Shown: piece after piece, positions 35,515-47,045 of the stretch
Position numbering within the stretch: position 1 is the stretch's first letter
Layout: every line of letters begins with the position of its first letter
DNA from: an uncultured Muribaculaceae bacterium
GTDB taxonomy: Bacteria > Bacillota_I > Bacilli_A > RF39 > UBA660
Length of the DNA stretch: 64,000 bases
Assembly (NCBI GenBank): GCA_964408085.1
Contig: CAYOYB010000003.1
Span: 18,806-82,805, forward strand
Direction of reading: 5' to 3'
The notes under the pieces: generated by a model
Seen by the model: only the letters and a program-made list of their open reading frames with translations
Told to the model about the DNA's origin: nothing
Database searches by the model: none
Position numbers and translations under genes: made by a program

Positions 35515-35573
35515 CAAAGGCTAACCAAAATTAACCTTTCATATAATTTAAAATAGATTAATTCAACTAATTT
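35515..35573. repeat. Partial copy of the tRNA-Arg downstream flank (terminator hairpin + spacer); putative old attachment-site scar
   Basis: aaaggctaaccaaaattaacctttcatataatttaaaatagattaattcaactaattt aligns with 46975-47036 (aaaggttaaccgaaattaacctttaatatatttaaagtcgattagttcgactaattt). Confidence 0.5.
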
Positions 35574-35589
35574 TTGGGAAATAATTACT

Positions 35590-35900
35590 TATTCAATCTC
35601 TTTTCATATATATAGCCTTGTTCTGTAACAACATTTTTACATTTATCAAGTTCACCATTTGGAATAGTCTTTTCATATATTTTTTTACAACCAAGACTTT
35701 CATAAAGCCTAGAATTGCAAAATTCATAAGTTAATATTTATAAACATTTAACATTATCTTGCTTAGCATATTCAAATAACCATTTTTTCTGTTTCATCTA
35801 ATATTTCAAGTAAATAAATCCAAACATGCACGTTACCCTTTTCTCTAGAAAAATTTTACTCAAGTCTCATCCATTTGCATAACACAACTGCCTGTTTAAT
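35590..35900 (-). pseudogene. GNAT acetyltransferase remnant (multiple frameshifts)
   Basis: No intact ORF. Minus-strand frames read ...GNVHVWIYLLEILDETEKMVI... and ...LYESLGCKKIYEKTIPNGELDKCKNVVTEQGYIYEKRLNK*, i.e. the GNAT C-terminal motif (FYEKLGF-like), split across frames. Confidence 0.35.
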
Positions 35901-35928
35901 TTCATACTTTCATCGTCAAAATACTTTT

Positions 35929-36669
35929 TTAATTATTATCCATATAGATATAATTATAATATTTATAGAGATTTTCACAATTTTCTTTTACAAAAACAAT
36001 ATTTTTTTCAATTAAGTATTTAACTATATCACTAGCATTATAGTTATTTCCATAGGTAAGTAAAGAAATCTTTTTTGGTTCTATTATTTTATTAGAAAAG
36101 GTATGCATATTCCAGTATTCCATTTGTTTTTCAGATACATTACTATCGTAAGCATATAAATCTTCAATATAACTCGCTGGATAATTTGAAAACGCCTTCA
36201 CCTCATCAACATCATCAAAACTAAAATCAATATTTTCTTCTAAATCTAAAATCAAGTAGACACTATTATCTAAAATATTTTTCAATTTTCTATAAGACCA
36301 TATAGATTTATTTCTGCTTTTCTTATTATTAGAAATTATTGTTTTATGTATTATTTTAGGAAAGAAACTAACTTTTAAAAGATATGCGCCTATCCAATAT
36401 ATTAAATTACTTTTGGGCTTCGCAATAAGCCATTTAATCCAAGTGTCCATAATAACTAAAGCACCTTTATCTCCAACAGAAAAAAATATTTTTTTGCTTT
36501 TTTCAATAATTTTAGCATTTATCCCAATTTTAGGAATCAATCCTTTTTCTATAATACTATTTAAATTATTAACATTAGTATAATGAAGAAAAATATTATT
36601 TAGATTGACTTTGGAAATATCATTAGTATTTATATTTAATAGTATATCGTCTTTCATAATAATTCTCAC
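35929..36669 (-). CDS. hypothetical protein with DarT/DUF4433-like N-terminal motif (possible ADP-ribosyltransferase toxin)
   Basis: IFLHYTNVNNLNSIIEKGLIPK parallels the DarT N-terminal signature (IYHITHIDNLKGILRMGKL; HxT...NLxSI...GL). The rest is unassigned. 246 aa. Confidence 0.35.
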   Translation of the reverse strand: MRIIMKDDILLNINTNDISKVNLNNIFLHYTNVNNLNSIIEKGLIPKIGINAKIIEKSKKIFFSVGDKGALVIMDTWIKWLIAKPKSNLIYWIGAYLLKVSFFPKIIHKTIISNNKKSRNKSIWSYRKLKNILDNSVYLILDLEENIDFSFDDVDEVKAFSNYPASYIEDLYAYDSNVSEKQMEYWNMHTFSNKIIEPKKISLLTYGNNYNASDIVKYLIEKNIVFVKENCENLYKYYNYIYMDNN

Positions 36670-37153
36670 CTATTTCTTGTTATTAATAAGTTACCATTTT
36701 ATATAAATACATTTTAGCATATTTTTGGTTTAAATAATAGGGTTATTAATTCAGTATTAACTACTCACAGTGAACTATTATACATGGCTATATTATGAAA
36801 AATTATAACTACTAGTATAGGTTTGTTTTTTATTTCTTAGTAAGAAGAAAAATTTTATTTTTAAAGACTTATATTCTATTTTTAAAATAATGCAAACTAT
36901 TTTAAATAAAATTAAATCATAAAAAAAATTGCCTAAGCAAATATTTTATAAAGTGGTGCCTCTAGTGGTTAGATACCAAACTGCCACAAAGGAAAGTTAT
37001 TCCACCTCAAGTACAACCAAATTATACTGCACAATCTTTAACAATGGAACAAATTTATAACAAAAATATAACTTTTTTATAACAAATTTTTGGAAGAAAT
37101 AAATTTTTCAAAATACTTAACACATAAATTTATAATTAAAAATCAAATCAATT

Positions 37154-37546
37154 TTATAATATCTCAATTTCATCATCTATTAATATATCGTATTCATCAT
37201 CAAAATAATGAGCAATAATATGAAAAATAATATGAAATTTTTTTTCATTTATTCTTATTATATTACAGTCGTATTGTCCATAAATAATAATTGATATCCA
37301 ACCTTTTTCGTCTTCAAACGTAACATCAGTTATATATTCTTTAATATCTGTTTTAATTCCAAACGCAGTATTTTCAAACATCTCTTTCGAAAAAGTAAAT
37401 TCTAATCCAATAAATGTATTATTAACATTAAATGTAATAAATGGAGCAATTCCAGTTCTTTTGTGACCATAGGAACTGACTGAAAAATTTCCCCATAAAA
37501 TTTTTGTTTCAAATTTATTGTATTCTATATTATTAATTTTTATCAT
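37154..37546 (-). CDS. hypothetical protein (130 aa)
   Basis: ORF with no recognisable motif, located between the DarT-like gene and the element boundary repeat. Confidence 0.4.
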   Translation of the reverse strand: MIKINNIEYNKFETKILWGNFSVSSYGHKRTGIAPFITFNVNNTFIGLEFTFSKEMFENTAFGIKTDIKEYITDVTFEDEKGWISIIIYGQYDCNIIRINEKKFHIIFHIIAHYFDDEYDILIDDEIEIL

Positions 37547-37591
37547 TTTAAATACTTACCTTTCAAATTTAATAAAAGCAAACCACAGAGG

Positions 37592-44661: not shown

Positions 44662-46460
44662 TTTTCAACACCAACCTTATCAGCAAAAATATAAGTTATT
44701 GGTGGTATAGGTATTTCAATTAATCCATAATGTGTTACTTTATTTAATCCTTTTTTATTAACTAAAGGAATTATTTTTAATGGCGTATTAAAAGAATTTT
44801 CTCTCGTATATTTTAGGCAAAATTGATGGTCATTATATTTTTCTTTTTGAATTTCCTTATAATCTATTGGATAATTAACTTGTAGTCTTTTAATATGATT
44901 TTCAACTTCTTTTCTAGTCATTGGAGCACATACTTCAACTTGCATTTTTTCCCCATTAACACTAACATCTTGAAATCTATTAATTGCACCACTATTAAAC
45001 AGATTAGCATACTCCTCTATAAATGTTTTTCTAAAATTTATATTTTTAATTTCTAGTTCGTTATTATCTTTTTTGATAACCTCAATAGATTCAATATAAC
45101 TCATAATTAAATCTTGTTTTTCATTTATTGATAATTCATTCCATTTTACTTCAAAACTACTTTGATATAATGGATTAATCAAACATTTTATACTTTCTAA
45201 ATCTCGTTTTAGCATAATATCTTCAAAAGTAAAATTATATTGTTCTAATTCTTGCTCTTCTTTTTGTTTTAATTCGATTTTCTTAATTCTGTTTTCTAAA
45301 TATTCCTTATCTTGCTTATATTCTTCTATATCAATTAATTTATTTAAGTAAGCATCTTTTAATCTAATTACTTTGTCTTTTAAAGTATTTATTTCTTTTG
45401 TTAATAATTCGTTTGTATTTTCAACTTTATGTTTTAACAATGGGGCAAAAAATTGTCTAACTGTTATGTCATATTCAATAATTGATGTTATTTGTTCTAT
45501 TAAAAGTTCGATTAGTTTATCTTCTCTAATATTAGTTTTACATTCGTTACATTGATAATAAATATATCTTTTTTTCTTGCCACCCGGTGCCTTACAAGCC
45601 ATTATTTTATGACAGTGTGGACACATAATTTTTTGAAAAAATATATAATCATTTCTTCTAGTATAATTGCGAGTATTCTTCCTTGATTGTTCTTGACAAT
45701 CTTCCCATAACTTTTTACTAATAATAGGCTCTACAACATTTTCATAAAGGACAGGATTTCCCGTTCTTCCACCACTTATAAAATCACCTTTATAAAGTGG
45801 ATTAGCAAGTATTTTTTGTATTGTAGTATCATACCATTTTTTATTTAATACTTTTTCTTCATTAAATATATTAGCAATTTTTTGATAACTACTTCCTTTT
45901 AAATATAAATCAAATATTCTTTCTATTATTTCACTTTCGGCTGGGTTAATAATTAATTTTTTATTATCTCTCATAAATCCTAAAGTTTTTCTAACAGGTA
46001 TGTGCCCGTCTTTAATTGCTCCTACCATTCCAAATTTAGTTCTTTCTGATACTCTCTCGATTTCAAGTTGTGATAAAACTGTTAACATTCTTACAAAAAA
46101 TCTTCCATTGGCTGTTGAGGTATTAATATCGTCCATTGCACATTCTAAACTACAACCGTGTTTTTCAAGTTCGGCTATCAATATTTCTAAATCTCTTACG
46201 CTTCTTGTAAGCCTATCTAATTTATAAGCCACTATAACATTTACATTATGATTTTTAACATCTTCTAATAATTTTTTAAATTGTGGTCTATGCTCCATAT
46301 CTTTACCACTTATTCCCGCATCTTCATATATTCCATAAATATTATAATCTCTAAATTTACATAAATCTTTTAACTTTTCTTGTTGTTCTGGTAAACTATA
46401 ACCCTCTCTTGCTTGGTCTTCTGTCGAAACTCTACAATATATACCAGCATTTTTTCTCAT
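44658..46460 (-). CDS. large serine recombinase (integrase)
   Basis: Resolvase catalytic N-terminus [11 protein letters not shown]...[10 protein letters not shown], a recombinase domain, a zinc ribbon (CPHCHK...CNECK) and a C-terminal coiled coil. 600 aa. Confidence 0.85.
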
Positions 46461-46668
46461 ATTTTATCAACTCCTTTTCTATAAAAAAGAAGTCAAAAGA
46501 ATTAGTTCAAATACTACTACCTTTGACTTCTAAAATATAATTATAATTTTGTTTATTTCTAATTTAGGCATAGTAGTACCTCTCTTTCCAATAAAAGACT
46601 AGATACTGCTTGCTTTTATTAAGTTTATATTTTATCATTTATTTTTCTTTTGTCAATAGGGTTAGTTT

Positions 46669-46947
46669 TTATGTGTTTTTATGTGTTTTTATATAATTTT
46701 CTAATTCGTTAAATGGTATAAATTTTTCTAATGTATTGATATAAACATTTTCACATTCATTAAAGAATAAATATGTTATATTACCAATAACTAGTTTATG
46801 AGGCTCAATATAAGCAAGATTAGTTTTAGGAATATTAATTATATTTCCTTTTTGTATTTTTTCTTTAATATTTAGAAACATTAAGATATTTTTTACTCTT
46901 TTCTTTAGTGTTTCTTCTATTTCTAATTTTTCCTTTATTATTTGCAT
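46669..46947 (-). CDS. small hypothetical protein (possible recombination directionality factor)
   Basis: 92-aa ORF between the recombinase and the attR/tRNA end. No motif. Confidence 0.3.
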   Translation of the reverse strand: MQIIKEKLEIEETLKKRVKNILMFLNIKEKIQKGNIINIPKTNLAYIEPHKLVIGNITYLFFNECENVYINTLEKFIPFNELENYIKTHKNT

Positions 46948-46966
46948 AACTAATCAACTCCTCTCA

Positions 46967-46992
46967 AAGCATAATAAAAAAGGTTAACCGAA
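46967..46992 (-). terminator. intrinsic terminator downstream of tRNA-Arg
   Basis: Perfect 9-bp stem aaaggttaa-ccgaaa-ttaaccttt, followed on the minus strand by TTTTTTAT. Confidence 0.55.
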
Positions 46993-47022
46993 ATTAACCT
47001 TTAATATATTTAAAGTCGATTA

Positions 47023-47045
47023 GTTCGACTAATTTCCCTATGGTG
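47023..47045. repeat. attR-like direct repeat overlapping the tRNA-Arg 3' end
   Basis: gttcgactaatttccctatggtg. The last 5 nt are the tRNA 3' terminus (rc CACCA). Confidence 0.6.

Follow-up and report, generated by a model that had tools for sequence, protein, structure and literature searches.

Why should the sequence that lies directly behind a tRNA gene be met again, twice, kilobases further downstream? The question is raised by the tRNA-Arg(TCT) gene of an uncultured bacterium of the RF39 lineage, in a stretch of 64,000 nucleotides (contig CAYOYB010000003.1, hereafter the window), whose preliminary description took the repeated sequence to be the downstream flank of the tRNA, copied by islands that had integrated one after the other at the same site. 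Here we describe several layers of evidence for a different origin. We consider it highly probable that the 3′ end of this tRNA-Arg(TCT) gene is a hot spot for integrative and mobilizable elements (IMEs) which encode a large serine recombinase (LSR) and a MobV relaxase and join RNA genes exactly at the CCA, and that the region behind it is a head-to-tail array composed, from the tRNA outwards, of the element A1, the units B1, B2 and R, a displaced flank and an older layer.

The repetition itself is well founded. A repeat search of the window pairs 35510-35551 with 46973-47014 at 86% identity, and a gapped local alignment of this copy (copy C) with the sequence downstream of the tRNA extends over 64 columns (35511-35573 against 46973-47035, about 86%). 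The alignment significance of the third partial copy, which had been claimed at 35515-35573, was named in advance as a point on which the claim could fall; the score is 80, against 23.5±3.5 and a maximum of 39 in 500 shuffles. The 24-nt hairpin that it contains is found in the 64 kb only at 35516-35539 (2 mismatches) and 46979-47002, where none is expected. The other copy, copy A (37592-37614), had been described as one member of a 23-mer pair, and indeed 22 of its 23 bases are identical in an extended pairing with the tRNA end, around the exact 17-mer CTAATTTCCCTATGGTG (37598-37614 and 47029-47045; 0.1 expected). It was also correctly seen that copy A represents the tRNA-proximal part of the sequence (CACCA and 18 nt) and copy C the distal part (spacer and hairpin), with an overlap of 13 nt. 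Two further matches were set aside as due to chance: one at 27733-27749 (3 mismatches to the 17-mer), considered as an outer attR, lies inside a conserved Mur-ligase gene, and one at 33162-33178 lies inside an open reading frame (ORF). Chance could also be invoked for the copies themselves, the window being very AT-rich and the repeat search yielding many pseudo-repeats of 70-78%. Such a similarity of low-complexity DNA is practically negligible as an explanation, in view of the shuffled scores, of the null expectation for the hairpin pattern and of blastn E-values from 1e-9 to 1e-14 between copy C and the arms of 30 or more independent elements.

The tRNA-Arg gene ends in ...GGGACACCA, with its last base at 47041, and in our reading the element A1 begins at the next base. 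The features concerned are:

47041-47117, minus strand: tRNA-Arg(TCT) (ARAGORN; Rfam tRNA, 63 bits), proposed integration target and sole tRNA in the window
39487-47040, minus strand: IME A1, intact, 7,554 bp (conserved ends, Pfam domains, match to the contig L039)
46975-47040, minus strand: A1 left end (P′ arm), TAGGGAAATTA, hairpin 1 (GTCGAACTAATCGAC, 47015-47029), spacer, hairpin 2 with T-run (46979-47002)
46669-46947, minus strand: 92-aa ORF of A1
44658-46460, minus strand: large serine recombinase, 600 aa (Resolvase PF00239, 5e-38; Recombinase PF07508, 2e-20; Zn_ribbon_recom PF13408, 7e-4)
43405-44661, minus strand: MobV relaxase (Mob_Pre, 1.8e-32)
41792-42016, plus strand: helix-turn-helix gene, A1 cargo
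41377-41697, minus strand: helix-turn-helix gene, A1 cargo
39565-40680, minus strand: HEPN/Hypoth_Ymh protein, PD-Lambda-3_B-like, A1 cargo
39487-39540, minus strand: A1 right end (P-end), GGAATTAACCTTAATAAAAATTTCCAAACGT, 12 nt and CACCA

The 600-aa serine recombinase of A1, used as query, returned 54 metagenome loci, and this is where the nature of the repeated sequence comes to light (comparison loci carry L numbers below). The left arm of the A1 type, here called A-type, which in the window runs TAGGGAAATTAG...AAAGGTTAA...CCTTT, is found directly after the CCA of tRNA-Thr, Leu(TAG, CAA, GAG), Lys, Arg(TCT, CCT, ACG), Phe, His, Glu, Gly and Cys, as well as of tmRNA, that is, on these metagenome contigs, after at least 13 kinds of tRNA genes and tmRNA. 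Across the loci the junction reads ...CCA|TAGGGAAATTAGTCGAACTAATCGAC...AAAGGTTAATTTCGGTTAACCTTTTTT, and a homologue of the recombinase begins 490-610 nt downstream of the RNA gene in every locus with enough upstream sequence, except L091 (211 nt). Furthermore, the tRNA-Arg loci of relatives could be fetched by means of the adjacent GerM-like gene, since the order GerM, then tRNA-Arg(TCT), is kept in about 30 species of metagenome-assembled genomes. In the closest relatives, L003 and L004 (GerM identity 94-95%), the sequence after the CACCA of tRNA-Arg is a different one, CTTTATAAAATACTTGCTTAGGCAAGTTTTTTT; in the distant L021 (GerM 57%), the A-type arm of the window follows the tRNA-Arg almost base for base. 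The same sequence behind 14 or more RNA genes, together with a different flank in the closest relatives, identifies the repeat as the left end of a mobile element. On sequence grounds, each of the three copies can thus be read as an A-type left end, one being the A1 arm, another the first 18 nt of the R arm and the last the arm of an older element, A3.

The reading as a flank, in which the three copies are duplicates of the chromosomal att site and the hairpin is the terminator of the tRNA, should be confronted with these data. The copies do exist, in direct orientation and on the 3′ side of the tRNA, and the hairpin with its T-run does have the look of a terminator. Nevertheless, the same sequence stands behind so many other RNA genes, always with a recombinase gene adjoining; the flank of the closest relatives differs and is itself present in the window, at 36921-36953; and CACCA is all that is common to every junction. 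We therefore regard such duplication as very improbable. The 23-mer, in particular, is not the recombination core, the junctions having only (G)CACCA in common. The preliminary description had also considered that the sequence might be a dispersed repeat unrelated to tRNA-Arg: it is indeed not specific to that gene, but it is the end of an element and not a repeat dispersed at random.

A1 can be delimited at both sides. It starts with TAGGGAAATTAGTCG and terminates in ...CCGTTAAGGCACCA, and the Logan contig L039 is identical (100%) to window 47033-39464. The general plan of the ends is a left end with a small hairpin containing TCGAAC, then a hairpin with a T-run, and a right end with a conserved motif followed by (G)CACCA. 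For the arm of A1, folding predicts two hairpins (-16.2 kcal/mol, z = -3.0), of which the second is followed by a U-run. Folding was used here in place of a simple terminator scan, which overlooks hairpin 2 because its stem has only two G-C pairs. This second hairpin would act as a terminator, halting read-through from the tRNA into the element. At the opposite side, the pattern AACGT-N(9-16)-CCA has just two occurrences in the 64 kb, each at a junction, and the motif (T)ATAGAAATTAACCTTAAT.AAAAATTTCCAAACGT with 12 nt and CACCA marks the right ends of 23 related loci besides window 39487-39540. Beyond these right ends come plain terminator flanks or further arms, and otherwise unrelated sequences. 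The arm, the 92-aa ORF, the recombinase and the MobV relaxase (window 47045-43420) form a family backbone with homology to 50 or more loci, the remainder being variable cargo; L045 is an otherwise typical member in which about 8.9 kb (L045:1134-10001), which looks like an insertion into the element, separate the 92-aa ORF from the recombinase gene.

With its own LSR, a relaxase unaccompanied by pore genes (no VirB4 or coupling-protein domain was found by Pfam in any ORF of 39487-47040), CACCA at both ends, and an arm and P-end kept in 20 or more relatives, A1 has the make-up of an IME. Recombinase relatives above 33% identity are absent from the PLSDB plasmids, and an Rfam scan of 27-48 kb gave the tRNA-Arg gene and no known RNA family in arms or leaders. 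Other kinds of element were tried and rejected. A classical tRNA-integrating island would call for a tyrosine recombinase and a distal repeat copying tens of nucleotides of the tRNA. Pfam detects no Phage_integrase domain in the ORFs of 31.9-50.9 kb and 28.0-31.7 kb, and five P-ends, compared with the 3′ half of the tRNA as if they were partial copies of the tyrosine-integrase type, score like shuffled sequences once the final 5 nt are kept fixed; with the tRNA they share at most the terminal (G)CACCA. An integron is likewise set aside, there being no tyrosine recombinase or IntI and the cassette ends being CACCA junctions with arm and P-end motifs instead of attC sites.

The range of targets appears to belong to single enzymes and not merely to the family as a whole. 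Five RNA genes, namely those of tmRNA, tRNA-Leu(TAG), Lys(TTT), Arg(CCT) and Thr(GGT), are followed by element cores which are 99.7-99.8% identical over the first 2.4 kb after the CCA junction (L042, L043, L044, L062 and L076). The recurrence of almost one and the same element behind them is, indirectly, the one sign of excision and mobilisation. Near-identical recombinases thus stand at distinct loci with the target consensus GTTCgA.TC...C-N-CCA, as is characteristic of multi-targeting LSRs; to judge from these sequences, one recombinase evidently uses many RNA-gene ends. The targets have in common the T-loop sequence GTTCgA.TC, C72 and CCA, and at 13-20 nt past the CCA the arms have TCGAAC, mirroring the T-loop motif. 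The recombinase may accordingly recognise the features shared by all tRNA and tmRNA 3′ ends, i.e., T-loop, C72, N73 and CCA. As to the point of exchange, the attR of near-identical elements is element sequence as far as G71, irrespective of the target, the attR of L043 (~5640-5660) reads GAGGCAC|TTTG, without CCA, and both elements with a known right end at U73 tRNAs (L055 at tRNA-Cys, L075 at tRNA-Gly) have CTCCA P-ends. Taken together, these data point to a 2-bp crossover at C72-A73 or A73-C74, which would include the discriminator position.

What lies between the right end of A1 and the next copy of the arm? Here the window holds a succession of smaller units, followed by the flank mentioned above:

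38560-39486, minus strand: mini-element B1, 927 bp, with B-type arm (GATTGATAGAAAACTCGAAC and long hairpin), promoter-like leader, one gene and B-type P-end (AGTCGTTGTAC...GGGCACCA)
38592-39323, minus strand: gene of B1, 243 aa, guanylate-kinase-like P-loop protein
37610-38559, minus strand: mini-element B2, 950 bp, with B-type arm and leader, one gene (254 aa, 37638-38402) and P-end AAGTTGTTGAACGTTCGCCTTAGGTCACCA
36954-37609, minus strand: unit R, 656 bp, with an arm starting TAGGGAAATTAGACGAAC (copy A, 37592-37609), its own hairpin and T-run (37579-37596) and the end ...CTAGAGGCACCA
37154-37546, minus strand: 130-aa ORF of unit R
36921-36953, minus strand: displaced L003/L004-type flank, CTTTATAAAATATTTGCTTAGGCAATTTTTTTT, with a small terminator hairpin (blastn 92-95% to CACCA and the flank touching tRNA-Arg in L003 and L004)

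The sequence of B1 adjoining the right end of A1 begins GATTGATAGAAAAC, the CACCA of A1 being followed by GATTGATAGAAAACTCGAAC. At 38559 the B-type arm is met a second time, together with a conserved leader of about 150 nt, so that copies starting GATTGATAG are found at 39486 and 38559. B2 terminates in AACGTTCGCCTTAGGTCACCA, abutting copy A, and the right boundary of R reads ...GAGGCACCA, after which comes the flank CTTTATAAAATATTTGCTTAGGCAATTTTTTTT. The junctions at 39487 and 38560 (CACCA|GATTGATAGAAAACTCGAAC), 36954 and, further out, 32822 are of the same kind as those already described, and had been missed. B1, B2 and R are recombinase-less; each ends in CACCA and has one ORF, in which no recombinase or relaxase domain is found. 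The 130-aa and 254-aa ORFs have no match in Pfam, PADLOC, NCBIfam or PHROGs. A loose regular expression for the B-type P-end gave 215 mostly spurious matches, and the strict pattern used instead gave 8, all at junctions.

It could be argued that 37610-47040, which had been presented as one island, is indeed a single composite IME, in which repeated internal promoter or regulatory modules account for the GATTGATAG...leader copies at 39486 and 38559. The 23-mer pair brackets exactly this interval, the leaders of about 150 nt include promoter-like and operator-like motifs, an A-type right end followed by a B-type leader is also seen in L045, L062 and L070, and composites can move jointly after accretion (PMC5704250). 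However, the family P-end motif stands at 39487-39540, well inside the interval, and elsewhere the sequences after it are unrelated, plain terminator flanks among them. In L017, moreover, the B-type arm comes directly after the CCA of tRNA-Arg, and L046 has, directly behind an A-type IME, a separate element, a sister IME made up of a B-type arm, an LSR of 613 aa and a B-type P-end (AGTYGTTGTAC...GGCACCA). Finally, L045 and L062 are 99.3% identical around the site and differ by exactly one such unit, a 755-bp one-gene cassette (L062:14967-15721; L045:14931) with a gene of the histidine phosphatase family and CACCA on both sides, at an internal junction of the array. In sequence terms, this difference indicates that mini-units of this kind are discrete and that internal junctions are used. 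The single composite element is thus improbable, and the interval is better described as one IME with two mini-elements. Arrays are also seen elsewhere, 11 further loci holding 2 or 3 junctions.

The leader of about 150 nt precedes unrelated cargo genes (window 39320-39486, 38403-38559 and 32614-32821; L070:16531-16680; L045:14937-15060) and comprises the arm, the long hairpin (AAAACTCGAAC...GTTCGAGTTTT), a sequence of the extended -10-like kind (TATGATATAAT) and inverted repeat sequences, TGTCAATT...AATTGACA. Such a leader may represent a shared module of terminator, promoter and operator. The cargo of the array leans towards nucleotide-handling or defence-like functions, with a guanylate-kinase-like P-loop protein, weak NT5C-like and AAA_28 matches, an R2K ATP-grasp and the HEPN/Hypoth_Ymh protein (window 28055-32613, 38592-39323 and 39565-40680); a methyltransferase-like gene was noticed by eye in L004:11360-13400.

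The L003/L004-type flank at 36921-36953 is removed from the tRNA by 10,087 bp, which is the sum of the lengths of A1, B1, B2 and R. It falls within 36700-37150, a stretch that had been taken for a gene-poor, decayed remnant. The site is hypervariable throughout the lineage: in L006 and L008 it is nearly empty, L006 having 147 nt between the tRNA and the Mur-ligase gene, whose homologue in the window stands at ~27980, about 19 kb from the tRNA. Intermediate distances are seen in L005 and L007 (~5 kb) and in L004 (~7 kb).

Beyond the flank, the traces of older layers are as follows:

35929-36669, minus strand: 246-aa ORF (formerly "DarT-like"), with no profile match
35590-35900: stop-ridden stretch (formerly "GNAT pseudogene"), its translation containing stops
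35511-35573, minus strand: copy C, apparently an A-type left arm, orphaned and decayed (identity of 80-89% with arms in at least 30 related elements)
32822-35573, minus strand: putative remnant A3, ~2.75 kb, recombinase-less, from copy C to a decayed A-type P-end
34741-35475, minus strand: GH16 gene in A3 (Pfam GH16)
33845-34543, minus strand: 232-aa ORF in A3
32960-33706, plus strand: 248-aa ORF in A3
32822-32872, minus strand: putative decayed A-type P-end of A3 (aligns to the family P-ends; score reached by 2 of 1000 shuffles)
31847-32821, minus strand: putative mini-element B3, 975 bp, with B-type arm (32798-32821, 3 mismatches), leader, 235-aa ORF (31906-32613) and B-type P-end (31847-31877)
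31808-31846, minus strand: putative second fossil flank, CTTTTAAAACTAAAAGCCTCTAAAATAAGGCTTTTTTTT, resembling in alignment the flank directly after tRNA-Arg in L006 and L008

These outer layers are a reconstruction from decayed motifs. The older layer attached to copy C would extend leftwards to 32822, on the far side of the L003/L004-type flank and outside the limits first drawn for it. The interval 32799-32889 is 73% identical to the junction between the end of A1 and the arm of B1, and B3 now ends in ACATA, a decayed form of the terminal CACCA. In copy C, hairpin 1 has been lost to substitutions and hairpin 2 (35516-35539) kept. Decay thus rises with the distance from the tRNA, from the intact arm of A1 through copy C (86%, one hairpin lost) and the junction at 32822 (73%) to the ACATA end of B3, and the junctions at 47041, 39487, 38560, 37610, 36954 and 32822 all stand in direct orientation behind the tRNA, on the minus strand. 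The idea of successive integrations with decay of the older ones is therefore retained, as a head-to-tail series at one tRNA end whose distal units are the more decayed; the units and their boundaries are other than those proposed.

Profile and sequence searches do not support the labels that had been given to two features between the flank and copy C: the 246-aa ORF has no match in Pfam, PADLOC, NCBIfam or PHROGs and nothing significant in a PDB sequence search, and the "GNAT" fragment has no Pfam match. A homologue of the 246-aa ORF (40-50% identity) lies in the tRNA-Arg array of L017 (L017:12133-12867). Related AAAGGTTAATTT..TTAAC.TTT hairpins flank the GH16 gene (34736-34759 and 35516-35539), and hairpins of the same type occur at L003:13542-13565 and L004:13404-13427, just upstream of a homologue of the block with the 232-aa ORF. 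A terminator module, AAAAGCCTT.TAAAATAAGGCTTTTTT, is shared by the sequence after tRNA-Arg (L006, L008; window 31808-31846) and by that after element right ends at tRNA-Lys and tmRNA (L060:~12320-12360; L067:~4300-4340). In L050 (100-145), an A-type arm begins at AAATTAG after a sequence that is not a tRNA (GTCAGTTCA|AAATTAGTCGAAC).

Several observations weigh against the array as we reconstruct it, and copy C is the first of them. It starts at AAATTAG, without CCA and TAGGG, and it lies 1.35 kb beyond the L003/L004-type flank, past the 246-aa ORF and the stop-ridden stretch. A strict order with the newest element next to the tRNA needs an extra assumption, either insertion at an internal junction or that the flank segment is itself an element. 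Moreover, the flank type at 31808-31846 is also found behind element ends elsewhere, and may therefore be a generic, spreading terminator module instead of a native flank. Unit R has no homologue of its interior or P-end in the fetched loci, and the window encodes only an A-type recombinase although B-type units are present. The placement of the crossover is drawn from one attR devoid of CCA (L043) and two U73 cases. Neither an excised circle nor the attP junction of A1 (39487-39540 joined to 46975-47040) was found in IMG/VR, and no genome of the same species with an empty site was found by exact-protein look-ups, which returned only same-strain Logan contigs ending at repeats. Finally, most of the comparison loci are metagenome assemblies. 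Presence and absence were seen for a sister cassette (L045 and L062), the units of the window having same-strain contigs only.

For copy C, then, one has to consider that it may be no tRNA-anchored fossil, but the mark of an A-type element inserted secondarily at a pseudo-site, or of a terminator module that recombination has spread. Its truncated start, the sequence before it, which is not tRNA-like, and its position past the flank would suit this possibility, as would the arm of L050 that starts at the same point and the similar hairpins that flank the GH16 gene and are also seen in L003 and L004. On the other hand, a matching decayed A-type right end stands 2.75 kb further on, directly against another arm, as expected in an array, and the polymorphism between L045 and L062 indicates that units enter or leave at internal junctions. 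The use of internal junctions would explain why an element end is found beyond an old flank. We thus take the alternative for copy C as rather unlikely, and keep the reading of copy C as the arm of A3. One may even speculate that its junction was a P-end/arm junction with an internal deletion of about 27 nt; the gapped alignment of copy C stops short of any P-end, and the upstream sequence resembles the end of a degraded ORF.

How could such an array have grown? A newcomer would recombine with the CACCA of the tRNA, or with that of an internal junction mimicking a tRNA end, and earlier residents would be pushed outwards. For the recombinase-less units, movement may have been in trans, or in cis through a resident recombinase.

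These traits can be compared with those of known systems. The clostridial element Tn4451 inserts at many sites having a GA dinucleotide in common, whereas tRNA and tmRNA genes, at their CCA end, are the targets of the family described here. In other respects, the IMEs Tn4451 and Tn4453 (LSR TnpX, Mob/Pre relaxase TnpZ) are alike, being small, with an LSR and a MobV (Mob_Pre) relaxase, no pore genes and very short end repeats (PMC5704250). Recombination at a short core is expected for serine-recombinase IMEs (PMC5704250), and the ends seen in the window fit this. Accretion and the formation of cis-mobilizable elements (CIMEs) have been described for the integrative and conjugative elements (ICEs) ICESt1 and ICESt3 and for IME_Sag2603_tRNALys: newcomers use the att site that retains the target gene's end, residents keep their att sites and lose recombinase or transfer genes, and composite arrays arise (PMC5704250). 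B1, B2, R, A3 and B3 would fit the description of CIMEs. Those cases involve tyrosine recombinases and long segments of identity with tRNA ends, while here a serine recombinase and a core of 5-6 bp are concerned, and the units are compact one-gene cassettes with matched ends rather than obvious deletion products.

tRNA-anchored stacks have also been described for the tycheposons of Prochlorococcus, where 910 of 937 elements of this type use tyrosine recombinases and leave partial tRNA copies; the present family differs from them in that tycheposon families are tied to particular tRNAs, belong to another host phylum and have no relaxase. In staphylococci, the Ccr LSRs of SCCmec and pseudo-SCC elements insert at the 3′ end of rlmH (orfX), which is left intact, and form tandem composites, including recombinase-less units, with short direct repeats. 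Unlike the family described here, SCCmec has a single protein-coding target, much larger elements and no relaxase.

Multi-targeting LSRs, in which one recombinase uses many sites with a common short motif, offer a further likeness (Durrant et al., 2022; PMC10083194). The word "tRNA" is absent from the text of that study (PMC10083194); the motif in the present case is the universal tRNA/tmRNA 3′ end, and for this reason the sequence of the RNA gene stays intact up to the CCA after insertion. Integration by serine recombinases at tRNA genes is described as rare, known cases being the phage phiRSM1 at tRNA-Ser and the actinomycete ICEs (AICEs) of Mycobacterium at tRNA-Leu (PMC3218068). Each of these uses one specific tRNA (PMC3218068; PMC5704250), in contrast to near-identical elements at five or more RNA genes here, and a family at 14 or more. 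Accretion, CIMEs and tRNA-anchored stacks are therefore already known, and what appears to be undescribed in the literature searched is an LSR acting at many tRNA and tmRNA ends together with one-gene cassettes.

With the arrays of integrons, this locus shares the ordered succession of compact, mostly one-gene units at one recombination site. It differs from them by the lack of IntI and attC, by cassettes that carry their own terminator and promoter-like leader, and by the anchor, which is the end of an RNA gene. One could go further, though only tentatively, and see in the locus a serine-recombinase counterpart of the integron, in which a universal RNA 3′ end is read and whole IMEs and one-gene cassettes are shuttled into exchangeable arrays behind RNA genes in gut Bacilli. 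The discriminator base would lie inside the 2-bp crossover, and any tRNA or tmRNA gene, or any junction mimicking one, could serve as a docking site.

Tandem accretion at tRNA genes is textbook knowledge, and the unusual part is that essentially one enzyme would act at the CCA of many RNA-gene identities. If the discriminator base belongs to the crossover, a single base would decide the range of targets. Such an enzyme would be attractive for genome engineering, since every genome contains its docking site. From the point of view of annotation, the data emphasize that a hairpin "terminator" adjoining a tRNA can belong to an element, and that the true old flank can be 10 kb away. In turn, one-gene units whose ends match suggest an economy of cassettes similar to that of integrons but with a different chemistry, and such an enzyme would help to explain how small accessory genes are exchanged in poorly known lineages of gut Bacilli.

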